Source of the DNA: Catajapyx aquilonaris
Lineage: Eukaryota
Length of the DNA: 43,215 nt
Direction: 5' to 3'
Assembly (NCBI GenBank): GCA_000934665.2
Contig: JYFJ02003362.1
Coordinates: 1-43,215, forward strand
Shown here: in pieces, positions 6,558-42,889 of the stretch
Numbering within the stretch: position 1 is the first letter of the stretch
Layout: each line of letters opens with the position of its first letter
Notes under the pieces: model-generated
Seen by the model: the letters and a program-made list of their open reading frames with translations, nothing else
Database searches by the model: none
Told to the model about the DNA's origin: nothing
Program-made: the position numbers and the translations under genes

Positions 6558-7342
6558 CTAGCACTGGCTGTCTACAAAAAAAAAATGCAGGAAAGAAAAA
6601 TTCATGAATGAAAATGCAGGAAAGAAAAATGCAGGAAAGAAAAATGCAGGAATGAACAATGCAGGAAAGAAAAATGCAGGAATGAAAAATGCATGAATGA
6701 ACAATGCAGGAATGAAAAATGCAGAAAAGAAAAATGCATGAATGAACAATGCAGGAAAGAAAATGCAGGAATGAAAAATGCATGAATGAACAATGCAGGA
6801 ATGAAAAATGCATGAATGAACAATGCGGGAAAGAAAAATGCAGGGATGAAAAATGCATGAATGAACAATGCATGAATGAACAATGCAGGAAAGAAAATGC
6901 AGGAATGAAAAATGCAGGAATGAACAATGCAGGAAAGAAAAATGCAGGAAAGAAAAATGCAGGAATGAAAAATGCAGGAAAGAAAAAACTACAGGAAAGA
7001 AAATGCAGGAATGAAAATGCATGAATGAAAAATGCAGGAATGAAAAATGCAGGAATGAAAAATGCATGAATGAAAAAATACAGGAAAGAAAATGCAGGAA
7101 TGAAAAATGCAGGAAAGAAAAATGCAGGAAAGAAAAAATTGGTCAAAACAACACCGTACAAAGTCAATTAACACTGTAAATATTTGGTAATTTTTAAAAA
7201 TAATGATCTTGTATTGCGTCCAAAAACTTGTTATTACCAATAAACCATCAGTGTGCTCAGTTTCAGCACTCTCAGTAGTACGGAAGTGGGTTAGGTAGCC
7301 CGAACATACAGACGAACCTTCTGCTTTATGTACAGTATAAGA
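6558..7342 (-). mobile_element. Possible non-autonomous Helitron carrying the 15-bp minisatellite
   Basis: On the minus strand it begins A|TCTTATACTGTACATAAAGCAGAAGGTTCGTCTGTATGT and ends CTAG|T, matching the Helitron A|TC...CTRR|T rule. The 3' hairpin is weak. A similar 5'-end motif (A|TCTATATCATAAT...GTTTGTTTGTTTGT) is at ~1113 on the plus strand. Confidence 0.4.
6581..7138. repeat. ~15-bp minisatellite (AAAAATGCAGGAATG/AAAAATGCAGGAAAG variants)
   Basis: Directly visible tandem array of roughly 37 units. It explains the FFIPA/HFSFL ORFs. Confidence 0.95.
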
Positions 7343-8430: not shown

Positions 8431-8928
8431 CACTCTAAGAAATGTCCGGGTTAAATGTATTTATCCCGGAAAAAATATCACTTTTGTCATGGTTATTTAA
8501 CCCGGACATTTCTTAGTCATGGTTATTTAACCCGGACATTTCTTAGAGTGTATACACTCTAAGAAATGTCCGGGTTAAATGTATTTATCCCGGAAAAAAT
8601 ATCACCTTTGTCATGGTTATTTAACCCGGACATTTGTTAGAGTGTATACACTCTAAGAAATGTCCGGGTTAAATGTATTTATCCCGAAAAAAAGATCACT
8701 TTTGTCATGGTTATTTAACCCGGACATTTCTTAGTCATGGTTATTTAACCCGGACATTTGCGGACATTTGTTAGAGTGTATACACTCTAAGAAATGTCCG
8801 GGTTAAATAACCATGACTAAGAAATGTCCGGGTGTATACACTCTAAGAAATGTCCGGGTTAAATAACCATGACAAAAGTGATCTTTTTTCCGGGATAAAT
8901 ACATTTAACCCGGACATTTCTTAGAGTG
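8431..8928. mobile_element. Array of five MITE copies (26-bp TIR CACTCTAAGAAATGTCCGGGTTAAAT) joined by TATA
   Basis: Units at 8431-8550, 8555-8644, 8649-8778, 8783-8834 (truncated) and 8839-8928. Each is bounded by CAC...GTG with TA flanks, and the last two are inverted relative to the first three. Confidence 0.85.
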
Positions 8929-11589: not shown

Positions 11590-14500
11590 TCAGTCTTGCT
11601 TTATTCTGTGTCGGAACACGACCGAGCTCCCTGGGGATTCATCCTGGAAAGAACGGGGACGTAAAATTTTCGTTTCAAAAAAAATAAATCCTACCAACAA
11701 AGCATTACGAACGTACTGTGCTTGTGCACGTTCCCACTTCCGCAGCTCCTGCTTGGTCTCCGTGCTGCTGGCCCCATTCATCACCATACGAAGAGAAATC
11801 TTCGATTTTACAAAATCTTTGACTTCCCCGAACAGCCAGTCAGGCACCTACAGACACATACAAGATATTATGCTTATCGTGAACTCATAACACTCTGAAA
11901 CTTTGCACTGCACAAGTTACTAATACATGGAACCAAAATGCCTGGAGTGGCTTCTACCAATGCTCCACTCACCAGTACAGGTGTCCCAGAGTCGCTAGTC
12001 TCCAGCACGGCAGCCTTCCTTTTCTTCCCTACTGCCACCGTGACAGGCACCTTGCTTCGGTTTTGCAGGGCCTCATCATGTTTCAGGTCCCTTTTTGGGC
12101 ACGAACATATGCGTAGCTCGAGGCAGTGCCGCCCAAGCAAGACCTCTCCGTCCTCCAATGTGAAAATCAGGCGCAGAGGGCGCCTGTTTATGCCGCCTGA
12201 ACAGGAGCTCAGGCACATAAACTTCATGTACGCAACCGTACCGATGGTTCCCTCCGGCGAGACGGTACTGTCGAGTGGCAGGACCACACTCAGACGACGA
12301 GAATTTAGGTCTGAGTGGTACTCCGCACGCTGGTCATCAAGGCGGACCAGGTGGCGTACATGGGGGAAACCTGAAAATTATTAAAACTAATTAGAATACT
12401 TGAAGAATACTTGGAATCATCAAATCTGCTTGACCAATCATCTAAGTTTTTGGCTTTGACATTCTCAATTCGGGAAGACGCATGACTTACCCTGATCGCT
12501 TGTATTAGCGTGCATGAAGCAACGCTCGACCACCTCGGAGGCGGAATCATCCGTTGCGAACGTTGGCAGTATCCGCACCACCAAGCGCTCAGCATAATGG
12601 ACGTTGGAGTCCACGCTTATTTTAACAGGGCAAGGTCCACCCATGACGGAATACAGTTTGTTCAAGTCCCGGGAATACTAGATGGATAGGGAAAAAATGT
12701 AAGAAAATCATCCATCACATACTAACAGTAGCTCACAATACTGTTATCTCAAAGATGCAACTGTACAATTTACAAATCAGCTGTGAGCTGTAGGAGGCAT
12801 TAATTATAGGTTCTGCACACTTATGCATGTAATGCACCAAAAGCAGACTTACGATCCACTGTTTTTTCCCGTTGATTTCAGTGGCATCCACCGTAAAATT
12901 ATGCGGACCACTGTATGGCTCCACTGACGGGTGGGTTCCCGTGAACTTGGAAATGGTATGATGCTCTTGATCCATACTGCCAAAAAACCGATTGGCAGAA
13001 ACCGGAGTCATCGGGGAAGCTCCAATTGGAGACGTAGAGCTGCTGGGTTGCTGCATATCATCCATCGTCTGCACATATGTAATGTTGGATGCAGAAACTG
13101 AGTTATGCACCCTGAATTCGGAAAATGGGGTCTGCAAAGCATTAAAATCCAAAGTCAGTGAAACCATGACTTCGCTTCAAAATCTGGGAACGTACCAGCA
13201 GTGGATCGCTGTGGCCCAACATATCATCAGTCGTTATATGCTCTGCGAAGAACTTAACATCGCTGAAAAGAACATGAAAAATTAGTAAATGGATTCTGTC
13301 AAGGCCAACTGCAAGCTAGCAGTACCATTCGGACAATTACATTCATACAGATACTGTATCACTCAGCAGAGTTCGACGGGAAGGAGAATTTCATGAAAAT
13401 TACCCCACCTAACACCGGCATGTAGCTCTGTGCTGGGTAATGCAGCATAAAACAAATCCAACATCAAGTAATTACATGGCACAAAAGGTCAATAATGTGC
13501 CCTACCGTACAAAAAAAAAAAACAGTATTCAATAATGTACAGTACCCACATGGCTTGTCTAATGCACAAAAACATTAGTGTTACACAAATGCAACTAAAT
13601 GCTCAATTTACTCCGTAAACACACTCCAGATATGGGCCACAGCCCAATTAAATCTGGCATATCAATCGCTAGTGCATGTGAATGTAGTAGTGCATGCAGA
13701 AAAAGCACAGACTTGAAGGCATTAAACTCAAGAGGCACGTTATCACTTGTTTGCTACAAACATTTTGGCGGAATGGAGCGATTCCGCTAAACGCAAGTTT
13801 CCCTGTAGTCGTAACTTTCAATAGGAAAATCATGCTTCGCCAAATAAGCATACGAAGATATTGAAAAAAAAAATCAGCAAAAAGTGTGTGCATTTTCATT
13901 CTCTATGAGATGGTCATACTCATTCATAGTGCAGTACTGGTGGCGCCGCGAGCCATTGGCGCCAAAAGTGCGAATTCATTTCGATTCGCTCTTTAGCCGC
14001 CTCGGGCATGTGGCGCTACCAGTACGACACCATTTAATGTCCCTTATGCTGTTTCTTTGATCAATAGATGCTGAGCATGATTCTGATCCCTTCTGTTCCG
14101 TTTTTAAAAATGTGAGTTCAAAAGTCAGCGTCTGAGCTAGAAAGGACGCTTAGAGTTCTGTGCACCTGCCAAGCCATATAGAATTGGCTCCACTTTGTCC
14201 CTGATCACCTAGGTGCATGTAGTTAGCACTAGTGCGCCATCTGGTAGTGGCCTACCGTACTATGTTGAAGTGAGGGCGGGCCGGGCAGTGTTGTCAAACT
14301 TTGCTTTTCGGTGCCCTTGTTGGTCTAGTAAACTATGGAGGAAATGGCCAAAAGTCCCAAGAAAAAGCCCAAAAGCCCCAATAAGTTGGACTATGAAGGC
14401 GACGAGGCCCACTCGGAAGGGGACCAGGAAGAAGATGAGGTGGATCCCCATTTGGATTCACGGAGAAAGTGATATGCGAGATAGTTCGTCAATCTAATGT

Positions 14501-15908
14501 ATAAGCCAAGATTATCGGAATGGGCATTTCCAGCCATCCAGGGAACTCAAGTGGTCGGAAGTGACTTACGACAGAGGACAGGTCAGACTTTTGACACTAT
14601 CAAACCCGCCATTATACATGACTACAATCGTCATACGGGAGGGTTGGATCATACGGACCAGTTTTTGTCTTACTACACATTGAAACAGCGATCTCAGACG
14701 TGGTGGAAAAAATGCTTCTGGCGACTTGTAGACATAGCCATTGTGAATGCGTATGCTTGCTTCTGTTTTCACGAACACAAAATTCCGCAAAAAAAGTTCA
14801 GACTCGAGCTCGCGACGCAGCTGATTGTACCGTTCGTGTCGACAAAAGCTGGTCCGCTTCGTCCACTCGGTCCTCCTGGCCCTGCCGCTTCCGCTGCAAC
14901 TTCGCGCTATCACTGGCCTGAGACAGGCAAAATAAGGCGTCAGAGTCCATGGTGCCCCAACCCAGATCATCATAAAACATACGATGTATGCTGCAGTTGC
15001 AAACTTCACCTGACCAAAAAATGTTTCGTCGAATATCATCACAAAACGTTTGGAAAACCCTGGTATATGTAAATGCGGCTGAATTATTTAGCCACATTTA
15101 CACCGCAGAATTTTTGTACAAATTTTCGTAGCATAAGGTCCCTATTTTTTCTGTTACCTTGCCTGTACATAGTGTGAATCTGCTCAAAAATGACATGTGG
15201 ATGTCGTTTTACATAATAAAATAAATGGTGCAACTACTGTGTATTTGCACCTTTAACGATCCCTTCTTTCGACTCGAACGTTCCATAAACTTGCAGAAAA
15301 TCTCATGAGAAACGTCCGACTACAAGTATTTGCAATTGTCGCAGCGAGAACAAGTACACATTAATTACATTAGAATACCACACCCAACATGGAAAAAATA
15401 ACAAGTTGTCCGCAATTATCACAATTAAATTACTTGCCTCACAGGCTCGATGCGTCGGAATCAATTAAGGATTAAAAACGGTGAGATTCATTCAAGCCTG
15501 CCTCTCTTTGAAAGCAAAATTGCATGCGTGCTCAACTGACTTTCACACACGAAATTTGCACTCTACAAGCTGCCATTTTTGAACAAACAGTGAAAAATGA
15601 ATGATTTACTTCTACTCACTTTTACCGTCTTCAAAAAAAAAATGACCTAGACTGCAATAGAGAGGGTGTATTTCACAACATATTCTCAGCAAAACGATCT
15701 AACTGGAAATCGATGCAAAAGATATGAATTATGTAGCTGCAATGCTAGAAGATGAATTTACTCACTCGGGCAGCTCCAGCAGGTCGGAATCGGACAGAGG
15801 CGGCTCAGTTCCCTGAGAGTCGGTCCTACCACATGAAAAAAATGCAAGCGATAAGAAACACGAACATCGTACGTATTCAACCGAAAGTACTCACCTGTAG
15901 AGAGTCAT
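11590..15908 (-). CDS. p53: p53-family transcription factor (~420 aa, no SAM domain)
   Basis: Phase-consistent GT-AG exons: 15908-15895, 15825-15766, 13262-13196, 13131-12853, 12677-12491, 12370-11973, 11847-11590 (a further small intron in the last exon is possible). DBD motifs: YSRDLNKLYS, EVVERCFMH (Zn ligands C/H), FMCLSSCSGGINRRP, LRICSCPKRD. Also an NLS (KKRK) and N-terminal EPPLS. Confidence 0.93.
13934..14025. repeat. Imperfect inverted repeat in p53 intron, just upstream of the piggyBac relic
   Basis: GTACTGGTGGCGCCGC pairs with GTGGCGCTACCAGTAC. Confidence 0.55.
14335..15072 (+). mobile_element. Internally deleted piggyBac-family transposase relic, antisense within a p53 intron
   Basis: ORF 14497-15072 has KPAIIHDYNRHTGGLDHTDQ, WWKKCFWRLVDIAIVNAY, FRLELATQL and a degenerate Cys-rich tail (CCSCKLHL...CFVEYH), typical of the piggyBac C-terminus. 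A short acidic ORF at 14335-14472 resembles the acidic N-terminus. The catalytic core is missing and no TIRs were identified. Confidence 0.85.
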
Positions 15909-16253
15909 GGCTGGCACACTGGCGGCGAACTTGGCACTGCAAAAAGTACATTCAAGTTGTTCAACAGTAAGCTCAATCACACTGAACAGAATGTAATTAG
16001 CCACGTCCGACGAGCCACGTTGCAGGTAAGTAATTGGGGGGGGGGGGGGGAAAGTACCCTATCGGCACTAATTGCTTTCAGACACAACTAGCCAAAATAA
16101 AAAAAGTGGCATCGAATAATCATCATATCAAAACGCATGGCTATTATTTAAACCCACGTGGGGCTATTGTTGACAGCAGATGTAAGACATCATGAGACTG
16201 CAGAAATAAGTCTACTGTACTATACTACTATTACTATTAATAATATTAATAAT

Positions 16254-16254
<1 letters not shown>

Positions 16255-16299
<45 letters not shown>

Positions 16300-16552
16300 G
16301 ATACCCCGTGATAGGCCCCTTGGGCCTCTTAGGGGATCATCTTTTCGTGAACCGACTTTGATCATTTGCCTGAAATGTGATGGATTTTGATAGCGGGAGG
16401 AAACGGGAGAACCCCGAGAAAACCCACGCGAACACGGAGAGAACCCATCGAAACTCTTTCCACATAAGTATCCTCCGTCCGACCCGGGGATCGAACTCGG
16501 GACCTTAGAGGTGGAAGGCTGCGGCGCTAACCACTCGGCCACCGTGTCGCCC
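16255..16552 (-). mobile_element. tRNA-derived SINE with V-domain-like core and (TAT)n tail
   Basis: Minus strand starts GGGCGACACGGTGGCCGAGTGGTTAGCG (A box) and has GAGTTCGATCC (B box). Its core GTTCTCTCCGTGTTCGCGTGGGTTTTCTCGGGGTTCTCCCGTTTCCTCCC resembles the V-SINE central domain as I recall it. It ends in a TAT microsatellite. Confidence 0.85.
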
Positions 16553-16561
16553 TTATTGTTG

Positions 16562-16621
<60 letters not shown>

Positions 16622-16665
16622 GCTAAACCCGCCTAAACCCTAGTCGAGTGTTGTTGTTATTATTA

Positions 16666-16710
<45 letters not shown>

Positions 16711-16724
16711 GCTCAGCCCTAGTC

Positions 16725-16783
<59 letters not shown>
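16553..16783. repeat. (TTA)n microsatellite blocks separated by a repeated GCTAAACCCTAGTCAAGTG-like motif
   Basis: Three TTA runs, each followed by a related ~20-30-bp spacer. Confidence 0.85.
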
Positions 16784-17169: not shown

Positions 17170-17730
17170 GACGGACCAATCACAAGCCCAGATCGGTTGG
17201 GGAGAGCCAATCAGCCGCGTTGGAGGGTCCGGACACTGGGTGGTGTGAACCAGGCCGAACACAAAGAGCGGCCATGTGACGTCACACGACAGCGATTAGC
17301 CAATAGGAACGCCGCGAAATCGTCGCGATAACGTCGGGCGAACACACGGATCAGTCGCAGTAAAAAAGAACCAATCACAGACCGAGCTCGATTGTGGACA
17401 GCCAATCGCCTGGACGTTAAGTACAACCAACTGGAAGGTGTAAACTGCAATGATGTGACGTCACACTTAGCCATCAGCCAATAAAAATGCATCAAACGTC
17501 ACATAGATGCAGCATATATGGATAGCCGTGATAACGAATGATGCAATGTTGCGCAATGTTTATGCTGCTCATTGCTCAATGTCATTTTCCATAATTATGC
17601 AATCAAAATGTTAATGACCCGCACTTGCATAATGCTGACTGCCTGACTCACTAATTAGCCAGCTCTAGTTGGCGTGCTTCCGGTTGTATATATATGGTCT
17701 CTATAAGCCCCCCCGCCAAAATTTGAACGT
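17170..17730. promoter_or_regulatory. Candidate bidirectional promoter (p53 / SYCP3-like)
   Basis: Six same-strand CCAAT boxes (17176, 17207, 17300, 17371, 17402, 17478) and two identical palindromic CRE/ATF sites TGTGACGTCACA (17275, 17454). Also a TATATATA run at ~17687 and CCCGCC-AAAA-TTTGAA (E2F/CHR, 17712-17727). A GTAAG donor near 17016 on the minus strand suggests a non-coding first p53 exon. Confidence 0.7.
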
Positions 17731-18112
17731 GCTAATTGCATTATTAGGACAAATTGAGCAATGTTTTGAGTACAGAGGTCATACCAGGAATGAAATGAGT
17801 AGGAAGAAGCACTCGTGGTAATCAGGCCGCAAACTCCATTACATTTAGTTACAGCTATGGTTACAGCATCTCGTCATAATAAATGGACAGCATATAATGG
17901 ACGTTAAGTAATGAGGCATAATTAGCCTCTCGAAGTAATAATGTATTGCAATTATTATTATTTTATTCTAGAACAACGGTAGCCAATCCCTTGGTTGCCA
18001 TACCGCAATAATTGTCACGATGACAACCGTTCAGTCAACAACCTCAAGTTTGTTCTGATCGGACAGCTTGTCCTGACTGTTCAGTTGAGACACTTTTGGT
18101 TGCGCTGAAGAG

Positions 18113-19410
18113 ATGGCTAAGTCGTTGGGATTCTCCGCAGGCTCCGCGGGTGAGGCGTCTCCTACCCACTCTCCTCGAAGCGGAGGAGACGAGGACGATG
18201 AAGCAGGAGACTCTACCTACTCAGAGTTCCTGAAGAGGACGGACGAGAGCGTCAAGGAGCAGATGAAGCTCTTCAAAAGTGAGATCCCCCTAATTAATAT
18301 CGTTGGCCACTAATTAAACCGGGGAACATGTCGCGAGCCAACTCATGCCGTGCATTCCAATGCTGTACGACAACAATTAACAGCTCGTCAACAATTGAAG
18401 GGTCGCCCCCCGAATATGCATGGGTTACAATAATCACTTACATTATTCGGGGCGACCCTTCAATTATTGCCAACGCAGACTGTTTACGAATTCTTATCGA
18501 CAAGTTGAATTTTTCCGAGCCACTGCTAACTTGGCAGTAACTAGCAGCAAATTCGACCCATTATTATATTTTTTTTTTTTGTAGCGGATGAAATCTGAAT
18601 TTTTTTTAAAAATGGGAGACATTTTTTTTGTGGCTTTCCATTTCCAGATGCGTACAAACCGGTGTTCGAGAAGATGGAGCAGATGCAGGTGCAGCACGCC
18701 ACCGAGCGTAACGACCTGTACGACAGCTACCAGGAGGAGCGGGACAACCTGCACAACCAGTGGAAGGAGAAGGTCAGGCACAGCAACGAGATCATCAAGC
18801 AGATCCTCGGAAGCCTGGGAGAAGGAAACGACATCAACAATGTCAGTACACCGCAACGATTATAGTCCAATACGTACAGTCAATGAGCAATTCAAATCGC
18901 TATGGATATGCCCACGTGCAACAATCGGAGTAAACACTTGTCGATTGTTGCACGAGTGCATTTTTCAACGGAAATGTCAGTGTGCTGTCAAATGAAAAAA
19001 AAAAAAAAAAAAACGTAATTGTGCTAATAATTGCGCTACTAATAGGCTGACAACCTGGTTCAGCAGGTGGAGGAACTGGAGAAGAAGCTGGAGGAAAACC
19101 AGGTGGAGGAGAAGGACCTGCTCAGGCAACTGGACGACCTGCAGGAGAAATACAAGCTGGTAAGTTGCCGGATTTTTTTTTTTATGTGCTTTGTACTTGC
19201 GTAACCTCTTTTTTCTTTTCCAAGCAATGCGAGGACCTGATTGCCGAGCAGCAGAAGAAGCTGGACGAAGTGACCTCCTCGATGGAGAAGGAGGCGGATG
19301 AGACCCAGGCTAAGGCTCTGGACCAGATGAAGGACCTGGGGCAAGAGCTGGGAAGAATCAACATGAAGTCGTTCGGTGGTAATGATGACGATGACGACGA
19401 ACAAGAGTAG
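18113..19410 (+). CDS. 213-aa coiled-coil protein, candidate divergent SYCP3 (Cor1/Xlr family)
   Basis: Phase-consistent exons 18113-18278, 18648-18841, 19064-19159 (NAGNAG acceptor), 19225-19410, with strong GC3 codon bias. The gene model is secure. The SYCP3 identity rests on a by-eye match (K.E...R..L...Y......L..QW and E.L......L...KE....Q.K). Confidence 0.8.
18389..18469. repeat. Hairpin/MITE remnant in intron 1 of the coiled-coil gene
   Basis: CAACAATTGAAGGGTCGCCCC..CGAATA pairs with TATTCGGGGCGACCCTTCAATTATTG. Confidence 0.75.
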
Positions 19411-20963
19411 CCTGATCTGAAAGAGGAGTGGTGGAATTGCCGGCTGTTTTTTTTTTAGTAGCGCCCACCCTCCCTTAGCCTCCATCCTGCCGTGATAGCT
19501 CCCAAATGGCTTCAAGTCAAATGTTCAATTTCTTGTTAGACGCGGGCTTGAGCTTGCTTTTATGGCCATTTGGAAGGGCTGACAAAAATAAAGGTTCACG
19601 TATATTTCCAATCGTTTTTGGTTTCGCTCTCAGCACATATGAAGATCTCAACAGTAGTTGTCGTATGTAGCCATAATGTTTTTTTTAAAAACACGGCAGC
19701 AAGTTTCTAACTAGTCGAATATGAGCCAGGCTTATAATAAACGGCATGTCGAAATACACTGCGACACTTTTTAATGTACCTTAAAAATTATACATCAAGG
19801 TTCAGCTCCTGCGTAAAAAATATACTACCTTCGTATTAAATGGCAGTTAGTAAGTACATAAATAATGTCGTTGTATGAGCATATAAATATAATTATACAT
19901 CTTCAAGGCCAGGTTGCACCGGCTCCAGGAAAATTTGTCTGGTCGAAGAAGAGCCGGGATAATTGGCTATTCATTGTTGTCAACAATTACGTCAACAATG
20001 ATGCGTAACAAACCATCCATTCGGCCAGACAAATTTTGCAAAATCGCCTTAACTGCAATGCTAGAGTAGGAATGAATGGACGTAAAAAACACATTTTCAG
20101 AGATTACGGAGGCACAAAATGAATAAGTAAAGGACCGCCAATTAGACATTGGGTGCTGACGTCACTAGCCTTAAATACTGAGAGGTAAAAAGTTAATCGG
20201 TGGCATTAATAAGCGTCTTATTCGTTACCGTGACGCCAGCACAATCAAGTTCTGATGATGCTAACGTACAAGTGGACATTCAAATGAAGCGAGCCAAAAA
20301 ATCGACTCAAAAAGTAATATAAGAATTCGGAAATCTTGCGTAAACGTTCTGTTTAAAATTGGTCGATGTCACTTAAACACTAATGTTGATCAACAGAACG
20401 CTTAACATTTAATTCGTGGTACACACTATGAATTAATTATTGGAGGACGGCTAAATTAGTGCTCAAGTGACATCACATGATTTTAAACAGTGCGTTTAAA
20501 ATTAACTTCCCTGAACATTGCCCATAGCTTTTCAAATTTGTAAAAGCGTACACAGGAGCATTTTCTGATGACAAGTGAAGTAAACAAGAAACAGGTTTGA
20601 ACGTGTGAACACTTTTAAGCGTAAATATTTCTAGCGTATGATATATCGAGTAAGGCTCTGTGAACACTGCATGGTGCTGTTTTCCCGGCATATGCAGCCC
20701 AGTTCGCAACTAGGCTTTGGTCAGTCAAAAATCAACTAGCAAATGATACGCATAAATTTTGGAATGCTGCAACAATCAACGAATAAGTTAAATGCATATC
20801 ATCAGAACTTGAGCAATTAGTTCCGACAGTATTTGGTGAATTAGAATCATGCATTTTAAATGCAACTGGGTCCCATACTTGTATAAAAAAAACCTTACAT
20901 TATAAACGGAAACCTTATGTGAAAAAAAACTACGTGTATATGAAACATGGTAAACCAATAGTT

Positions 20964-23284
20964 TTAAAAGTCGGCATCGTCAGCAAAGTCGTTCTCCTCC
21001 TGTTCCACCATGACGCCAGACTTCTGATATTCGCCGACTCGCTTCTCGAAAAAGTTCGTCTTGCCCTCTAGCGAGATGTGTTCCATGAAGTCAAACGGAT
21101 TTTCCACACCGTACAGCTGCAATGAGTTCGTTATGATTAAATCGTTTTGTTATAAAGAGACATGTACTAACCTTTGGGCATTGCAGTTCGACCAAAAGCC
21201 TATCGGCCACAAACTCAATGTACTGCTTCATGAGCTGGCAGTTCATTCCAATCATGTCCACGGGTAGTGCCTTAGTCAGAAATTCCTGCTCGATTGTCAC
21301 GGCATCGGCAATAATCGCAGTGACTCTCTCTTTCGACGGTTTGTTGACCAGATGTTTGAACATGAGGCAGGCAAAGTCGCAGTGGAGGCCCTCGTCGCGC
21401 GAGATCAACTCGTTGCTGAAGGTAAGTCCAGGCATAACGCCACGCTTCTTCAGCCAGAAGATGGCGGCGAAACTACCGGAGAAGAAAATGCCTTCCACCG
21501 CAGCAAAAGCGATTACACGTTCGGCAAACGTGGACTGATCATCCGCTATCCACTTCAGGGCCCAGTCGGCTTTGCGCTTAACGCAAGGCATGGTTTCGAT
21601 TGCATTGAACAGGAACTCCCTGCAATAATTCATAATTATTAGGTATTCATTGATTAATATCAAATGATAACCAACCTCTGCGTTTCGTCCGCAATGTAAG
21701 TCTCAATTAGCATGCTGTACATCTCCGAGTGGACGTTCTCCATAGCGACCTGGAACCCGTAAAAGCAGCGGGCCTCTGTCACTTGCACCTCCTGCCCGAA
21801 CCTCTCGACCAGATTCTCGTTGACGATCCCATCCGAGGCGGCGAAGAAGGCGAGGACGTGGGATATGAAGTGGCGCTCGTCGTCGTTCAGCTTCTCCCAG
21901 TACTTCAGGTCTCTGGAGAGATCCACCTCCTCCACGGTCCAGAAGGACGCCTCTGCCTTCTTGTACATGGCCCAAATGTCGGGGTATTTGATGGGGAAGA
22001 CCACAAATCGGCCTGGATTCTCTCGCAGAAGGGGCTCGGACTGGACGTCATGCGAGACGACACCACGCTTCGGTTTGGCGACGGGAAATTCCTCCGCTGA
22101 GGAGAGAGAAGCCTGCAAAAAAGAAATAAATGTACGTGGCGACCATCGAAAATTGCAATTACTCCAACCGCACGCAATCCTCACCTTATCCGAAGCGTCG
22201 TCCTCTTCGATCACATTCTGATAGTTGCTGCGAAGAGGCGTGCTCGGACCCTTCTTCGGCGAACCCTTCCTCTGCAAAATGACACCACTGTTGATTTCCA
22301 CTTTCAAACGAGCCACACGCTTTTAAATTAAAAACCAACTCTTTAACTTTAAACATCGTCACAGTTAAATATAATAATTAAAATTAATGCTGTCATAAAG
22401 TGATTGCGATATTATAATGAGCAAAAATAAAAGCATTAAATTATATAAAAATTAATTAATAACTGAAATAAATTACCCAATAAAAATAATAACTGATAGA
22501 AATTACTCAATAAATAACTAAACTCATAAAATAAATGAGCAACAGATAAAAATAGAGATAAATATATATATAACTGAAAAGCATATAAGCAACAGATAAA
22601 TAATGGGTAAAATAATTAAATGTTATTAGTATGCGCTTAATGTTATAATTAAATGTTATTAGTATGCTTAATGTTATAATAGGATTATAATTAATACGGT
22701 AATTAAATATGACAATAATTAACGCTGTAATTAATGTCAATTAACCCTAGAATATTAATGTGCCTATAATACTGTAAATACTATGATAATTAACCTTTAA
22801 CAATATATTATTATTGTAATTAGAATACTGTAAATAGTATGATAATTAACCTTTAACAAGATATTATTATTGTAATTAGAATACTGTAAATACTATGATA
22901 ATTAACCATATTCTACGATATACTATTAATATGATTAAAATTAATACTGTAAATACTATGATAATTAACCAATATTAATGTTATTAAAATTAATACTGTA
23001 AATAAATACGATCATAATTAACGCTGCAATTAATGATGAATTAACACTGTAATTAAATATGGCCAAAATTAACTATGTACTTAATACGATCAATAACGCT
23101 ATAATAAATGTGATTATTATTACTGCTGTAACTAAAATATGGTCATTATTATTATTATTATTAGTGTTGTATAGGCAAAAGACTTATTCCGAACCTTTGG
23201 CGACTGGTTATTCTCCTTGTCGTCGGTCAACTTGAGCTGGTCCTCCAGTGCCAGGGCGAGGTCGTCCTCTCCGGTGGAGGGCAT
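20964..23284 (-). CDS. RRM2: Ribonucleoside-diphosphate reductase small subunit (404 aa)
   Basis: Exons 23284-23195, 22271-22185, 22112-21676, 21619-21172, 21116-20964. Hallmark motifs: [74 protein letters not shown]-terminal DADF. The N-terminal KEN box (DKENNQSPK) is characteristic of the cell-cycle RRM2 type. Confidence 0.97.
22768..22990. repeat. AT-rich ~55-bp tandem repeat in RRM2 intron 1
   Basis: AATACTGTAAATACTATGATAATTAACC... repeated about four times within an extremely AT-rich intron. Confidence 0.75.
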
Positions 23285-27350: not shown

Positions 27351-28846
27351 GCTTTAGTGCTAATCGCGGGCAATATTAGTGTCGCGTTCGGCACCACCTG
27401 CGCGAAATCACTAGCTTAGTGACCGGTTAGTGACACATATTTTTCGAAGCCAACGCGGCGCGGCGGCGATTAATAATCGCGTCCGGATTGGCCACTCAGC
27501 GGATGTTGTGGGCGTGACTTGAGTGATTGGCATGAGGATGTGCTCGGCGCTTGCGGTGTATGTCGGGAAGGGAGGGAATCATGGGGATAATCCCCTAGCC
27601 CGAGTCTGAGAGTGAAGGCGCGGGAGGGAAAGAAAAAGACGCGGCGCGCAGGGATGTAGCAGCAACCCGTTGATAGGGGAGCATCAGGGGATAGGAGGTG
27701 GTCTACATCCCTCGCTCGACCGTGTGTGGTCCCAGTGGCAAGTGCAACCACCTGGCAACCGATAGACTGCATGGAGGAGGGTGTGAAATGGGGTCGTCCC
27801 ACCACACCAGCAGCCCCTGACGCGAAGAAGTGTGGGGGTGAGTAAGCCGGGTTGGGGGCCGGTCCCCACAGCACTTCATGTCCGGACAGTGCCACTCCGG
27901 AGGCGCCGTGACTGAACGCAGTGCATCCCACTCGACAGGGGAACATCACATTGCGGGAGGAGTAGCTGTCAGGCAGGGTGGCCAGGCTTGGGCAGCAGGA
28001 GGTCGCACCACGCAGCGTATCGATATGTACAATTTGCAGGAATCGGACCTGTACTGTGTACAGTAGGAACTGGATTACAAATTAGGCGAAATTATGCATC
28101 GGTTTAATTGCAACGGTACAGTACGCATCAACACATACGTAACGGATTGGCGGATAATAAAATCGGAAAGCAGGTCGATATATCGGCCGTATCGATATAC
28201 TGAAGTTTGTGCGGGGTTGCCACATTGCGCGTGGTTTGCGTTCTAATTATACTGTTTAAATGAGTATGTCAGGAATTTAATGCCGGATTAAATACACAGC
28301 GTTGCCGGATTTCTTTAAATTGAGCTGTCTTTTTTTGGGTGAGATGCGATGAAAAGGGAGAGATATGGCAACTCCGCCTTTTTAGTTTTCCAGCTGTTCC
28401 AAAGGCGATAAACTGGTTCTTCTTGTGTCTGATGTAGGTGCAAAACGTTGCTGAATTGCGAACAATTACATCTGGAACTGGCATTAGAACGTGCAAGGCC
28501 AACAGCACGTGGAATTCGGACGAAAAAAGAATCGAAAAGGAAGGTACAACGCTATCGTAAGAATAAGTGCGATGTCGCATCCTCTTTACCTCTAGTACGC
28601 TAATTATTCTGTACCGAGTCCTGTACGGTTGGAATAACTAGTCCATTATTATACAAAGCAGAGAACATTGTCGATAATTTTTTTCCGCAATAATTGGTAA
28701 CGCGATTGATTAATGAATTATTATTATTCGGCCAATCGCATGTGACAAACGACGATCAGAATGCGCCCCCTTTAAAAAAAAGGCGGTATGTTTAAAATCG
28801 GTTTTGATTTTTTAAAAATTTGCAGGTCAAGTGTGTGACCTTGAGG

Positions 28847-29919
28847 ATGCCCAAGTCCCAGGCGGATATTGTGGCACGGTTGACCTGGCGGAAGGAACTG
28901 GTGGCCAAGAAGGAGATTCTCATCCAGGAGGTGAAGAGCAGGCAGCCCTTGTGGGACAAGACTAGCGGACGGAGGAAGCGGGACGTGGTGTGCAGGCTTT
29001 GGAAGGAAGTGGCCTCCGCCTTGGGCATATCAGGTCAGTTCTGCTGGATGACCTGGTCAGCCCGGATTAAACTTATAAACTGGTCCACTGGTCGAGTGGG
29101 AATGCTGGGTATTTCATGCGCTGTACATTTTGCAGTTACCGAGGCCAAATTCATGTGGCGGAACTTGAGTGACCGGTTCCGTCAGGTGCATTGCGATGCC
29201 ACACGTGGGAAGAAGGTCAAGTGGGTGCATTACTCGTCCCTCATGTTCCTGCAAGACCAAATATGTAGAAACCATTCGTAAGTACCGCAATGGAAAATGT
29301 ACTGTCTTCAATAATATACGTTGTTATCCAATTTGCAGAGTCACGGAGGCAATTACTGAGCCTCGGGAAACGGGCGACGTGGAAGACATGTCCTCTTCTC
29401 ATCCCGTCCCAACTGAAACTGGTACTGAATTATTTGTTGAACTTGCCCTCCATATATATTGGCATGTCACGATCGTTTGCATTTCAGAACAACACATCCT
29501 TGTGTTTGCTTCCGAGACTCCGTCACTTGCGACAAAACGGACGCAACAGCCACCCTGGTTAAATATAAAGAGGGCAGCAGAGGTGACGGACCATGAAGAT
29601 GTAGAGAAGCAGCTGAGCAGTCTGAAGCAGTGAGTCTCATTCGGAGCATGCCGTCATTGGGCAAAGAAAATTTTTTTAAAGATAATTTCCATATGTTTCA
29701 AGGTCAGTTGATCACATCCTCCGTGAGCATTCAAACGACAAGTACACCGCTTTGGGCAATTACATTTCGGCGACTTTGAAGAATGATGTGCCTGAGGAGC
29801 TTAAGAAGAAGTGCGAGTGGGACATCCTCAAAGTTGTTCAGTCCTACTCCTTGGGAAAGGTTCCTATTGTTCAGAGTGCAATTGATGATTGTGAGATGAG
29901 AGTAGTAGAACTGATTTGA
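28847..29919 (+). CDS. MADF (Myb/SANT-like) + BESS-like domain transcription factor (256 aa)
   Basis: Exons 28847-29033, 29136-29277, 29339-29421, 29488-29629, 29703-29919. MADF pattern LIQEVKSRQPLWD...WKEVASAL...WRNLSDRF...WVHYSSLMFL. C-terminal DKYTALGNYISATLK..VP...KKKCEWDILKV resembles BESS. Confidence 0.88.
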
Positions 29920-30671: not shown

Positions 30672-33600
30672 TCATGCCATATAGACATACGTATCGGTAG
30701 ACGTCTTCTCAAGAAACTCCCTTGCAGTCAGGCGGATAATGGATTTCTGCATGGAAAAAGACAATAGTTAGAGACATAACGCTTGTAATAGTGAATCGCC
30801 TTCATTAAATACGTCTAATAATTTTTCAGAATTCCTAAACTTTCTGTATAAATTGCATATATAGGTCCACTATGTGCCTTCACTTTTACTGACAATGCGC
30901 AGAACGTCCTTTGTTCTTGCACAACATTGCTTAAACTCACAGTGATGTCAGAGACGTCTGGCTTGAACTTTTCAGCTAGTTCGGCTAGTACGAGAGTCAC
31001 CAGCACTTGGAGAGTTAGTACTCTCTTGGCCTTCATAATCCTCACAACGGCTGCATCGATGACAGCATCCCGCTCGATCTCTGCATTCCTCACCACTTCC
31101 TGACGCTCTTTCTGGATCTCAGTTTTCGCAGTCGAGTTGATGATTACACGGTGCTTCTTGCTGTAAGGCACACAGTACACAATCATACGCAATTTGTCAT
31201 CCGCAGTTTTTAAATGGTTAAATCTCACTGCGTGTAGTCTGTTTGCAGGACCAGTTGTGTGTTGTTGTCAAACTCGTCAATCTTGCTGGCGTTTGCTTTC
31301 AGCAGCTGGACCCTGATGAGGCTCTCGACCACAGTGTTCAACACCTCCTTGGTCAACTGAGTTGCTTCGAGTAACTGGCCCAGGCTGCATTCAACACCAT
31401 TATTGAACTCCAGGAGCACCACCATCTGGTATGTTGATGCCTGAAATACATATCTGAAAGAGCCATAAAGGCTCATTCACACAGGCCGTCGGCGGTTTTG
31501 GTTTTTGGTCGCGTTGACCCTGCGGACCAATCATGACCCATGTAAACAAGCTCTAAACAATGGGTTGTTTACATGAGTCATGATTGGTCCGCGGTGTCAA
31601 TGCGACCAAAAACCAAAACCGGCGATGGCCTGTGTGAATGGGCCTTAATGTGTAAACAACAACAATTGCTTTATCGACAGTGTAAGGCCGCGTTTACATG
31701 TGAGCAATTTGATCAGCGATGTGCAGTGATCGCTGATCAAATCGCTCACATGTAAATGTGGCATGAAACAGATACTTATATAGATTGCGACTAATGGGAA
31801 CTCTCTGACCTGGTGTCGAAGCAGTTGCCGACCAAGTCTCCTCGGGACATCTGGTAGAGGTATATGAGCTTTCGTCCCTGGTGCTTTCCAAGGTAGAAAC
31901 CATTGAAAAGACTTATGCTTCGCTCGATCTGAAATGTGACGAGGTAACCAGCTGAATGTTTCGACATTAGCTGCGCATCATTCTGAACGGCTAGCTACTT
32001 AGCATATTTTTTGGGGGGTTTTGTTCCACTACTAACAAGTACTCACCACAAAGGGTAAGGAAAACGGGTTTGCCTCTCTGAAAGGCCAGACGTTGGACGC
32101 GAGCACCTGGATGCTGAAGTCAATATCCAGGGAGAGGTTGCATTCATCCGAGTAGGTCTTGTACTCCTCGCACAAGTCCTTCGACACTATCATGTCCTGT
32201 AGGAAAACAGTTAGAAATTATTCGCTCAATGCTGCATTGCCGTCACATGCCTTACCTGAAACATCTTCTTAAGTTTGGATCCATAATCAAACCCGCAGTC
32301 TCCCTGCAGGAGGCTGACCATCATCATCTCCATGTCGTCACTGATTGAATTGTGCAGGACAAGGCGCTTGGCCAGGGCATTGGCGTAGAAGTGGAGGAAC
32401 ACGTCCTTCGACTCCAAGAATACAAACACTGTCATCTGGAGAAAAAAATGTGTCGTCTCAGTTTGAATATTGAATACAATTAAAATTACCATGACATGAC
32501 AGAGGCATAAAGTGTCCAAAAACGTGTTGCAAATCGCGTATTTAATTTGAGACCATGATTATCCGAGTAACTTACAGCTTTGTCAAGTGCTACAGTTATT
32601 TGCTTGTCGTCCTGGTATTTGCTCCCTCTCTTGAGGACTGCGTCGCAAAACTTGGCCACAAATTCAGCCGAAGCGGCTGATCGCCCGTACTTGTCAGTGA
32701 TTGCATTGATGTTGATTAACTTTTGGCAGGCTTTGTCCAGGGATGACAAACATCCGGACTCGATGGGAAACGCTAACTGCAAAAAGTCCTTGTTTTCCTT
32801 GTGGAATGAGGAGATCAATTCCACGTAAGACGTTGCATTCTGCAGAGATAAATGCTAATTAAAGTATGCCGTGGAATATTCATAGTTGTTGACTAATGTA
32901 CATGTTGTAAAATAAATGTTGTGAATGTTGTTTGTTCTTAGCAATGCAAATCAATACGGAGCACTCGACCTTATCGGAAACTGGCTTTTTCATTAACTAA
33001 CCTTCTCAATATCGTCAACATTTTCCTCTATTATACCCAGACCCTGCTTGTGTAGGAATGACGTTAACGATTCCTGAAACTGCTTCACTCCGACTTCACC
33101 GTTGGAGATAATGCGATAGAGTCTCGTAAGGTCGTCCACACTCTTTGTGAGCATCAGGTTTGGTAGGACTGCAGTGATCTCATCCAATCTGTCGGCGATC
33201 AGAACTTCGTAGCATCTGTCCATCACTGGAGTAAGGGTACTCTCGTGCAGGTAACTATTGACAAGCCTGTTCTCATTAGATAATATCTGTTCCACCTTGT
33301 GAAATTGGGGAAAAAAAAAAGATCATTACGGAAAGATCTTAGCAGTCTGCATCATATGGTACATACCTTTTTCAAGTATGCAACAATAGAATTGTCCTTC
33401 AGGAATGCATTGCTACCGTCGAACAGAAAGTACACGGTGCTAGACAAGAATGGTGTTTCAAAGTATCTTTTGTAGGGGATGATGCAGAGATCCTTATCCG
33501 CACTAGGTTCAGCAAGAGACCCTGCGATTACAACAATAGGGTAATATGTAAGTACGACTGAAATGAATCATACAGACATGTAAAGAGAGTAGGGATTCAC

Positions 33601-35873
33601 CCAGCTCTAGAAAGCTGTCCACGACCCATCCGAGGAGAGCCAAGTCCACCACTTCACCGTTTCTCTCCATGTTGATCAGCGTCATGGCGCCATCCAATAC
33701 CTGTCCAATAAAATGTACATAGCGGCAATAAACTTTGATTTTCAAATAATATATGCATTTACCTTCATGTGTCCAGGCTTGAGCAGCTCATTCAGCCAAG
33801 AGACATACGAAAGCGTAGATACGTTGCGAACTTCATAACGTCCCTCCTCTTGTTCCTTTATGACCCAGTACCTGCACAACATTAGGACCATATTGAGCAA
33901 TTGACATATTTGGTTGACAGTTTTGTTTCAACTATTTGGAAGCACCAAATAAGTCAACTAAGGCTAACACTTGTAACGCAATTACTTATTCAAGTAGGAG
34001 AAGACGTTGTTCAAAGCTTTGGTGCTCTCCTTGAAAGCCCTCCATGCATCCAAATAGAACTTCAGGATGGAAGCCGTGGCAGTGGTTTCCGAAGCCTGCG
34101 AATAGTTCAGATTACTTATTATTTCCACTTTTGAGGACTTATTATCAGCACATGTTTTCACCTTTAGCAGACGCCTGACGTAGCCATTGATGGTCATTTG
34201 CAGGCGGTTGTACAGTTTTTCACCGATCATGAACTCGCTTGTCTCTTCCAACTCAAAGTCAGGTGTGACTCGCCTGATTACCGGAATGCCGCTGCAGTAG
34301 TTATGAACAATCCTGAGTGAAATTAAAGTTAAGGCAATAAAAGAGCCCATACCATGAAATGTTTATTACACTATCGGCCACCTTATAATAATCTAATTAT
34401 TATACAATTATTTCACTTATTCATGTGAAATGCTTACTGTACTGTCTGGTCTATCGGTGCAACGACTTATTATATACAACAGTACTCATCAATATGACCC
34501 AATAATTTGGTCTAAAGGATCATGATCCTGAAGTGAAACTGAATCGATAAGACAACGATGCACTATAGTGTCGAGTTATAATAATAAAGGATACGTGAAT
34601 AACTCCATGAATGTGCATTGGTCTAGCACTTCTCCACGATAAATTCTATCAATTCCATCCTTCAGTATCTTCCACACCTCATCCAGAGTCACCCTCCCGA
34701 CAAAGAATTTCTTCTCATCCTTGTTCGTCTTTGTTTCCAGCAATTTGTCCTGAAATAATGTAATCGGACGATGTTATGCAATAATGTGTCAACCCACACA
34801 CAAAAATGTCCAAAATTGACATATAAGCCCAGAGACAATTATACCTAAAGGGATCTTACTTTAATTCAGTTACAATCACGCTGATGAAATTTGCATATAA
34901 ATGACTGAAAATAATATAAATGACTGAAAAGAACACTGATATAATTTCACATACCTGTAAATGTGCAATAATGAGTCAACCCACATGAGAATTCTCATGT
35001 GTGTTGACTCATTATTGCATATTACCATCCAATTAGGCTATAATTAGGTTAGGAATATAAATGACTGACAAGAACACTGATATAATTTCGCACACATGTG
35101 AATGTGCAATAATGAGTCAACCCACATACGAGAATGCTCATGTGGGTTGACTCATTATTGCATATTACCATCCAATTAGGCAATAATTAGGTTGTAATTA
35201 GGTTATGAAGATAAATGACTGAAAAGAACACTCGCTGATATAATTTCACATACCTGTGAATTTGCAATAATAAGTCAACCCACATGAGAATTCTCATGAG
35301 GGTTGACTCATTATTGCACATTACCATCCAATTAGGCTATAATTAGGTTGTAATTAGGTTAGGAATATAAATGACTGTAAAGAACAACCTGTGAATGTGC
35401 AATAATGAGTCAACCCACATGAGAATTCTCATGTGGGTTGACTCATTATTGCATAACACCATCCAATTTAGGATTCTTACAGTAAATGCGTCATTTTCCT
35501 GGTTCATCGAACAGTTGTCGTCTCCAGCAGGTTTCTTCTGGAACCTTGGAGGAATCTCGCCGCGACGTCGACGGCGGGGCCTATTAGGCGGTGCTGCTGG
35601 CTCCGGGTTATTCTGGGGCTGCTGCTGGGGCGGGGGGATAACCGAGGGATGAACAATCTGAACGGGCCTCGAACTGTTCTGTTCGATTATTATTGGAACC
35701 GCTGTGGTTATTGGAACAACTGTCGTGTTTGATGGAACAGAAGGGATGGGCAGTGGCGGCGGCGGCGGCGGCTCATCTCTGGTGGTTCTGGCCGTGTTCC
35801 CCCTGGCCCCAGCGTTGGAGAGGATAACCGTGGTGTTCTGGTTGCGTCTCCAGCCCCGCTTGCCTCGAGCCAT
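30672..35873 (-). CDS. Divergent cullin-1-like protein (899 aa) with Arg/Pro-rich N-terminal extension
   Basis: 15 phase-consistent exons: 35873-35481, 34749-34595, 34312-34162, 34095-33986, 33871-33763, 33700-33601, 33521-33367, 33295-33002, 32839-32576, 32435-32256, 32196-32047, 31928-31810, 31453-31229, 31160-30941, 30746-30672. CUL1-type motifs: [59 protein letters not shown], neddylation site AAVVRIMK, C-terminal DTYVYMA. Confidence 0.92.
31469..31645. mobile_element. PIF/Harbinger-type palindromic MITE in a cullin intron
   Basis: TAA|AGGCTCATTCACACAGGCC ... GGCCTGTGTGAATGGGCCT|TAA. Nearly fully palindromic over 177 bp, with a 3-bp TAA TSD. Confidence 0.88.
31686..31763. mobile_element. 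Second small Harbinger-like palindromic MITE
   Basis: GCCGCGTTTACATGTGAGCAATTTGATCAGCGAT ... ATCGCTGATCAAATCGCTCACATGTAAATGTGGC. Confidence 0.75.
34893..35470. repeat. ~135-160-bp tandem repeat, each unit containing a 56-bp loopless palindrome
   Basis: TGCAATAATGAGTCAACCCACATGAGAATTCTCATGTGGGTTGACTCATTATTGCA at 34964, 35105, 35263 and 35398 (the last copy is perfect). A half copy lies at ~34777. Confidence 0.93.
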
Positions 35874-42648: not shown

Positions 42649-42773
42649 CATCATCATCATCATCATCATCACTGCGTTTCCCAAACACAAATGTGTTAAA
42701 TAATAAAAATAAAAATAAAAATAAAAATAATAATGATGATGATGATGATGATGATAATAATAATAATAATAAC

Positions 42774-42824
<51 letters not shown>

Positions 42825-42889
42825 GATAATAATAATAATAATAATAATAATGATGATGATGATGATGATGATGATGTTAATAATAATAT
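42617..42889. repeat. Compound trinucleotide microsatellite (CAA/CAT/GAT/AAT)
   Basis: Directly visible. It explains the poly-Q/H/D/N/I/M ORFs. Confidence 0.95.

Follow-up and report, generated by a model that had tools for sequence, protein, structure and literature searches.

The window considered here, the whole stretch of 43,215 nucleotides of contig JYFJ02003362.1 from Catajapyx aquilonaris (assembly GCA_000934665.2, positions 1 to 43,215 of the forward strand), contains a predicted four-exon gene with a small, acidic product built around two predicted long helices. The first of these helices resembles the Cor1/Xlr/Xmr family, that of the meiotic axis protein SYCP3, at a level below the family's own threshold. 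It is suggested, with confidence that is evenly balanced, that the product of this locus is a rapidly evolving protein of SYCP3 type (Cor1 family), consisting of coiled coil only and most likely a component of the axial/lateral element of meiotic chromosomes. The gene was delimited by enumeration of GT/AG introns over the standard-code frames in the region 17500-20100, and its parts are as follows.

18113-19410, plus strand: four-exon gene, from ATG to stop
18113-18278, plus strand: exon 1, 55 codons beginning with the ATG plus one base of codon 56, followed by a GTGAGA donor; encodes a Ser/Gly/acidic N-terminal part (residues 1-35) and the opening of the predicted helical region, YSEFLKRTDESVKEQMKLFK
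18648-18841, plus strand: exon 2, residues 56-120, predicted long helix 1 ending in a Gly-rich segment
18668-18790, plus strand: stretch resembling Cor1/SYCP3, at residues 63-103 of the protein (7-47 of exon 2), a sub-threshold match to PF04803
18809-18841, plus strand: Gly-rich segment GSLGEGNDINN, residues 110-120 (11 residues), at the end of exon 2
19064-19159, plus strand: exon 3, residues 121-152, beginning of predicted helix 2
19225-19410, plus strand: exon 4, residues 153-213 and the stop codon; remainder of predicted helix 2 and acidic tail
19369-19407, plus strand: acidic tail SFGGNDDDDDEQE, within exon 4
19587-19592, plus strand: first AATAAA after the stop, a putative polyadenylation signal found by pattern search

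Judged on its predicted exons and coding signal, the gene looks real. The listing of open reading frames shows an in-frame stop upstream of the exon 1 start codon, the donors read in exon order AAA/GTGAGA, AAT/GTCAGT and CTG/GTAAGT, and an AG closes each of the three introns, which are 369, 222 and 65 nucleotides (nt) long. Joined in this way, and read to the stop codon at 19408-19410, the exons give a product of exactly 213 residues, the length that the first-pass annotation of this DNA had stated. An alternative acceptor for exon 3, at 19046, would add six residues for a product of 219, and the remaining open splice combinations rely on weaker internal AGs. The GC content of third codon positions (GC3) is 0.79, compared with a GC content of 0.34-0.41 in the introns, and lies near the top of the range for neighbouring coding exons (0.50-0.83). 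The position of the AATAAA implies a 3' untranslated region of about 180 nt. A tblastn search of the 43-kb window with the joined 213-residue product found no second copy of the gene.

Two of the introns contain stable hairpins, both on the plus strand. The one in intron 1 (18389-18469) has 21-nt arms that are 95% complementary, a folding energy of -39.9 kcal/mol and a z score of -6.65, and the one in intron 2 (18908-18961) has 20-nt arms that are 90% complementary, with corresponding values of -28.5 kcal/mol and -4.94. CAACAAT-like words are present in both arms of the hairpins, which have no further copy in the window and no Rfam match; they could be remnants of small inverted-repeat transposons or intronic hairpin RNAs.

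The predicted protein is strongly acidic, with an isoelectric point (pI) of 4.5 and a net charge of -25 (53 D+E versus 28 K+R). Residues 1-35 are rich in Ser, Gly and acidic residues and carry a net charge of -5, and heptad-like sequence begins at about residue 36. AlphaFold2, run in single-sequence mode, models exon 2 as a single helix (residues 3-58 of 64) with a mean predicted local distance difference test score (pLDDT) of 91.2, and exon 4 likewise as a single helix (residues 2-50 of 61; pLDDT 88.3) followed by an unstructured acidic tail. Across the Gly-rich segment the pLDDT of the exon-2 model drops to 83 and then 54, and the segment is probably a hinge or turn joining helix 1 and helix 2. 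The protein accordingly has the build of the size class of about 200-250 residues that consists of coiled coil only, both modelled exons being single long helices. A Foldseek search of the PDB with the exon-2 helix gave no matches, as expected of a lone helix. The first-pass description of the product holds up on these points: the N-terminus has the Ser/Gly/acidic character assigned to it and the modelled part of the body is helical, the Gly-rich insert put at about 10 residues is found as 11, and the peptides quoted from the protein are all present in it (residues 64-94, KQIL at 106-109, residues 140-157 and the MEKEADETQAK stretch).

The evidence for family membership comes from profile scans, made exon by exon on unbroken translations against 24,736 Pfam models at E <= 10. 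Six families were listed for exon 2 (64 residues), and the top one is Cor1/Xlr/Xmr (PF04803), with an E-value of 0.0011 and 19.6 bits. The next-best, a 5'-3' exonuclease domain, is unrelated and about 20-fold weaker (E 0.024), and the others, thrombin light chain, NEMO, SOGA and DUF2120, are unrelated as well (E 0.05-0.12). The Cor1 match is ungapped, with 41 residues on 41 positions (profile 23-63 of 132), and it overlies residues 64-94, the first block of an alignment to human SYCP3 that the first-pass annotation had made independently of any profile and that is also ungapped. Placing profile position 23 at residue 63 implies, by arithmetic, a Cor1 start near residue 41. Other families considered, namely geminin, prefoldin, TPD52 and SYCE/TEX12, were rejected, as no exon had a Pfam match to any of them at E <= 10. 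As read from the sequence, the likeness to SYCP3 appears through the family profile only, and in helix 1 only.

In the crystal structure of human SYCP3 (eLife 2014, PMC4102245), W111 and the aromatic cluster Y125/F129/F133 pack on Y179/F182 in the tetramer together with I175, L178, I183 and M186, and W136 marks the transition to a central coiled coil formed by I150, F154, Q157/Q158 and L161, of which the glutamine pair is described as 'highly conserved'. Bonds are formed between W136 and Q168, D139 and R171, and Y95 and K214. DNA binding requires two basic patches, 52-KRRKKR-57 and 88-KRKR-91, and the terminal self-assembly motifs are Nt6 (69-EVQNML-74) and Ct6, the final six residues (PMC4102245). 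The comparison of the candidate with these residues uses the human strings as quoted and aligned in the first-pass annotation, with numbering from the same paper; the aromatic spacing of the quoted fragments agrees with the published residue numbers, which lends them some trust. Under this alignment, human Y125, W136, R118, L121, L132 and I150 correspond to identical residues Y83, W94, R76, L79, L90 and I108 of the candidate, and two of the five core aromatics are kept (Y83 and W94) while three are absent. Judged by this comparison, one part of the SYCP3 family signature is present and several parts are absent.

Further evidence comes from a complex model assembled from two chains each of exons 2, 3 and 4, with exon 2 as the scored partner. 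Its score of 0.78, versus 0.46 for the best of three controls, supports binding; among solved complexes 51 of 78 attain the mark for this score, and among mismatched pairs 2 of 108 do. Separate runs are consistent in at least 96% of their contacts, with a partner pLDDT of at least 80; the job is nevertheless unlike those on which the tool was calibrated, and a pass could reflect memory of a solved complex. All of the 25 lowest-error pairs (25/25) join exon 3 to exon 2 in antiparallel orientation, with exon 3 predicted to lie on exon-2 residues 31-49. The index sums of these pairs run from 53 to 61 with a mean of 56.6, which by arithmetic sets the dyad near residue 116, within the Gly-rich loop, a position also expected of a folded-back helix-loop-helix. 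When the offsets of the earlier alignment are applied (+42 for helix 1 and +32 for helix 2), the human residue sum becomes about 307, and the sums of the printed human contacts Y125-Q181, W136-Q168, D139-R171 and Y95-K214 are 304-310 (PMC4102245). The modelled helix-helix register thus matches that of the human SYCP3 tetramer. This agreement is taken as mildly supportive, since the alignment that supplies the second offset lacks statistical backing. The first-pass annotation had proposed an AlphaFold-multimer model of an antiparallel four-helix tetramer as a check. Run on exon pieces, the model returns the antiparallel contact, but stoichiometry and the choice between hairpin and extended forms are unreadable from pieces.

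Searches for relatives were centred on exon 2. A word-index protein search returned five candidates in the 'longer' length class, none of which scored, and none in the 'near' class, while a scan of 250 pattern-matching stretches from metagenome contigs confirmed none. No mention of three short exon-2 peptides was found in a literature search. A full HMMER scan of 1.84 billion representative proteins gave a single match, P0001, a protein of 7,162 residues that was rejected as a repeat artefact, its match consisting of 16 weak stretches at 25% identity over tandem repeats rich in A, E, K and D. The N-terminal third of P0001 is made of near-identical repeats of about 170 residues rich in A/E/K/D/V, and its misleading E-value of 4e-18 against a 64-residue helical query arose from summing the 16 weak stretches, which is a caution for coiled-coil queries in general. 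The same protein database holds many arthropod proteomes, and an exon of the neighbouring gene for the ribonucleotide reductase small subunit (RRM2) finds arthropods there without an identical entry, so that the DNA probably comes from an arthropod whose own proteome this database lacks. As far as its sequence can tell, the candidate protein is without a close annotated relative in the database searched. A 64-residue query in so large a library needs, by a rough estimate, at least 40% identity to be seen, so the blank search shows no more than rapid evolution of the protein or poor sampling of its lineage.

The genes that surround the candidate are without bearing on its function. About 5 kb upstream, and divergently transcribed, lies a p53-family gene (11874-13176, minus strand) whose DNA-binding domain exon at 11874-12377 has a Pfam E-value of 8.3e-31. 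Situated between the two is a remnant of a piggyBac-type (DDE_Tnp_1_7) transposase (14485-15072, plus strand), in which only the C-terminal end of the domain is matched (E 9e-10). Downstream, and convergent with the candidate, is the RRM2 gene (21091-22322, minus strand), split over at least two exons, with Pfam E-values of 7e-61 and 2e-49; the best named relatives of its exon come from hemipterans, an ostracod, a barnacle and a springtail, at 83-86% identity, and there is no identical entry. Further along are a MADF-domain frame (28808-29281, plus strand), a multi-exon cullin gene with Cullin and Cullin_Nedd8 matches (30815-34362, minus strand) and a leucine-rich-repeat gene (37464-38195, minus strand).

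Repeats are present on both sides of the candidate. A 15-nt minisatellite, AAAAATGCAGGAATG, occupies 6581-7137 in 37 copies with 85% matches, and gives rise, on the minus strand, to long open frames rich in Phe that are artefacts. At 8486-8873 a 94-nt palindromic unit is repeated in tandem (2.4 copies with 95% matches), flanked by related repeats of 26-30 nt, and together these look, from their sequence, like nested ends of inverted-repeat elements. Long trinucleotide arrays are found at 16238-16783, (TAA)n/(TTA)n, and at 42699-42888, (AAT)n, the latter giving an open frame with runs of Asn, Asp and His. An Rfam scan over the whole window gave no matches.

A number of observations weigh against the proposal that the candidate is an SYCP3-type protein. 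The exon-2 score of 19.6 bits falls short of the gathering cut-off of PF04803, 32.1 bits, and so does not amount to a Pfam-grade assignment. The signal is confined to one exon of four, as exons 1, 3 and 4 are each without a Cor1 match at E <= 10, and exon 1 has no Pfam match whatever at that level; HMMER filters remove most matches above an E-value of about 0.1, so that very weak Cor1 contributions from these three exons would be invisible. Scores of this kind can also be inflated by coiled-coil composition. Searches of 177,635 distinct PDB sequences by phmmer at E <= 10, using exons 2 and 4, found no SYCP3, which means that pairwise likeness to the human protein is not significant by itself; the four matches of exon 2 are three Cas8f-HNH forms and a hypothetical protein, and the two of exon 4 are cytochrome oxidase subunit 6 and apolipoprotein A-IV. 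Under the first-pass alignment, human W111, F129 and F133 have Q, R and H opposite them, and D139 has K, while the positions of F154 and Q157/Q158 fall in or beside the Gly-rich loop; no QQ pair follows I108-L109, where GSLGEGNDINN stands directly. No 6-residue window of the protein holds four or more K/R, the sole N-terminal basic pair being K41-R42, and no clear counterpart of EVQNML is seen, the nearest being KEQMKL at 48-53, which by eye shares 2/6 residues with it. The protein ends in a poly-Asp tail, DDDDDEQE. With regard to the complex model, pieces of one protein tend to pass a test of this sort, and the same antiparallel picture would be expected from a helical hairpin in any other family. 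Finally, the candidate is much further from SYCP3 than the protein reported from the silkworm Bombyx mori, which plain blastp detects at 25% identity to the mouse protein (PMC10151401), and a better SYCP3 may be encoded elsewhere in the genome. The earlier claim that the gene is a divergent SYCP3, and the HMMER comparison with the Cor1/Xlr/Xmr family suggested as its check, consequently stand in part: made exon by exon, the comparison gives Cor1 as the best Pfam family of exon 2 (E 0.0011), but with a score below 32.1 bits and in one exon. The same is true of the alignment blocks on which the claim was built, the first of which lies under the Cor1 match, whereas the later ones, in exons 3 and 4, are ordinary heptad sequence without such a match.

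The principal rival to an SYCP3-type protein, a real possibility although rated as less than even, is an unrelated, lineage-restricted acidic protein of helical-hairpin or coiled-coil type, serving as a small dimerising adaptor or scaffold, whose Cor1 likeness is chance heptad similarity. This would be consistent with a sole family signal that is sub-threshold and limited to 41 residues, with the lack of SYCP3 among the PDB matches of exons 2 and 4, and with an exon-2 scan of 1.84 billion representatives that found no relative except the spurious 7,162-residue repeat protein. It would also suit the strongly acidic composition without basic patches, a codon bias equal to that of the neighbouring RRM2 gene (GC3 0.79 versus 0.66-0.83), and a Gly-rich loop that lies exactly at the modelled packing centre, as in an ordinary intramolecular hairpin. 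It leaves unexplained, however, why the best of 24,736 Pfam models should be precisely the one that had been named in advance, some 20-fold ahead of the next, when no other family was found by Pfam for any exon, and why the size and layout should suit SYCP3-type proteins and the modelled register agree with the human crystal contacts under the first-pass alignment. A paralogue of the Cor1 family that has left the axis role, as mammalian XLR/SLX/FAM9 have, with the canonical SYCP3 elsewhere in the genome, is improbable. Non-axis paralogues of this kind are documented in mammals (PMC7743899, PMC2954115), and a protein that has acidic tails and has lost both its basic patches and its conserved centre would suit a relaxed or changed function; on the other hand, the window holds no second copy detectable by tblastn, and there is no direct evidence of duplication. 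Scarcely credible is the idea that the locus is not a functional gene at all and consists of chance open frames or a decaying pseudogene. The lack of a homologue in protein and metagenome searches with exon 2 would fit, but four open exons separated by three consensus GT/AG introns, a GC3 of 0.79 set against an intron GC of 0.34-0.41, an AATAAA about 180 nt past the stop, and confident helices modelled for both exon 2 and exon 4 all speak for a working gene.

The proposal that the locus encodes an SYCP3-type protein draws on the gene signals, the predicted helicity, the sub-threshold Cor1 match of helix 1 and the modelled antiparallel contact. A divergent arthropod copy is plausible because the synaptonemal complex proteins of ecdysozoans diverge more, and fast (PMC9882977), and because divergent insect SYCP2-3 proteins exist (PMC8131943); a further paper, PMC5803294, concerns SYCP1 and not SYCP3. 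If the protein is indeed a member of the family, expressed in meiosis and acting at the axis, helix 1 (residues about 59-109) and helix 2 (about 121-202) would pack antiparallel as a bundle of four helices, using the register that exists between the antiparallel chains of the human SYCP3 tetramer, and such bundles would stack into fibres along a cohesin/SYCP2-type axis. Because there are no basic DNA-binding patches, a partner protein would be needed, through which chromatin could be reached. The 11-residue Gly-rich loop at what is the centre of the human tetramer also makes it possible that the oligomeric unit would be a rod with a hinge, or a hairpin dimer folded back on itself, instead of a rigid 20-nm strut. 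A more specific version of the SYCP3 proposal, which must be considered unlikely, is that of a remodelled descendant in which an 11-residue Gly-rich loop was inserted at the tetramer dyad, so that the chain could fold back in a 'closed' version of the same helix-helix interface, and acidic tails took the place of basic patches. Such a protein would form either a hairpin bundle of half length or a rod with a hinge, and would not clamp DNA by itself but be carried by a partner.

If an SYCP3-type identity is confirmed, the gene would provide a molecular marker of meiotic chromosome axes for this arthropod lineage, and an unusually divergent case of SYCP3-type evolution, with DNA-binding patches lost and a loop at the tetramer centre; if refuted, it is another lineage-restricted coiled-coil gene. 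Even if true, nothing would be overturned, as SYCP3-type proteins have already been reported in insects other than Drosophilidae. Divergent SYCP2-3 orthologues are described in Lepidoptera and Diptera, with none reported in Drosophilidae or Nematoda (Tromer et al. 2021, PMC8131943). The first-pass statement that SYCP3 is hard to detect in Ecdysozoa therefore holds for flies and worms, though for arthropods it goes too far (PMC10151401, PMC8131943), and the description of the gene as a missed arthropod axis protein overstated its novelty, which is modest given that the Bombyx SYCP3 and the SYCP2-3 proteins of Lepidoptera and Diptera are already published.

Among known proteins, the vertebrate SYCP3 (human Q8IZU3, PF04803) shares with the candidate a small size, a short unstructured N-terminus and a long helical body. 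Cor1 is the best Pfam family of the candidate's helix 1, Y125, W136 and I150 each have a counterpart, and the modelled antiparallel packing of the helices is in a compatible register. The candidate differs in scoring below the family cut-off, in lacking W111, F129, F133, F154 and Q157/Q158, in carrying an 11-residue Gly-rich loop at the position of the human central coiled coil, and in having neither the basic patches BP1/BP2 nor a clear EVQNML-type motif, with a pI of 4.5 and a poly-Asp tail. The XLR, SLX/SLY and FAM9 proteins are likewise small Cor1-domain proteins that have diverged from SYCP3; unlike the candidate, which is single-copy in the window, they are mammal-specific, multicopy and sex-linked, with non-axis roles. 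The candidate also resembles the coiled-coil-only members of the SYCP2-3 family, ASY4 and KKT16 among them, in that membership is not settled by one-way sequence similarity; for such candidates, reciprocal hidden Markov model matches or an SYCP2-type partner in the same lineage are required (PMC8131943). The nearest likeness in an arthropod is to the SYCP3 of Bombyx mori (XP_004932505), which a plain blastp search with mouse SYCP3 brought to light and in which CDD calls Cor1 (PMC10151401). That protein is detectable by plain blastp whereas the candidate is not, on the evidence of the exon phmmer searches of the PDB, the two being compared here by description only. Mouse SYCP3 is 254 residues long (Table 2, PMC4132317) with Cor1 at 101-224, and the silkworm protein has 205 residues with Cor1 at 56-170 (PMC10151401). 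The candidate and the silkworm protein are both from arthropods, are of near-equal length, and have a coiled-coil body, with a Cor1 or, in the candidate, Cor1-like region whose start lies some 40-55 residues from the N-terminus.

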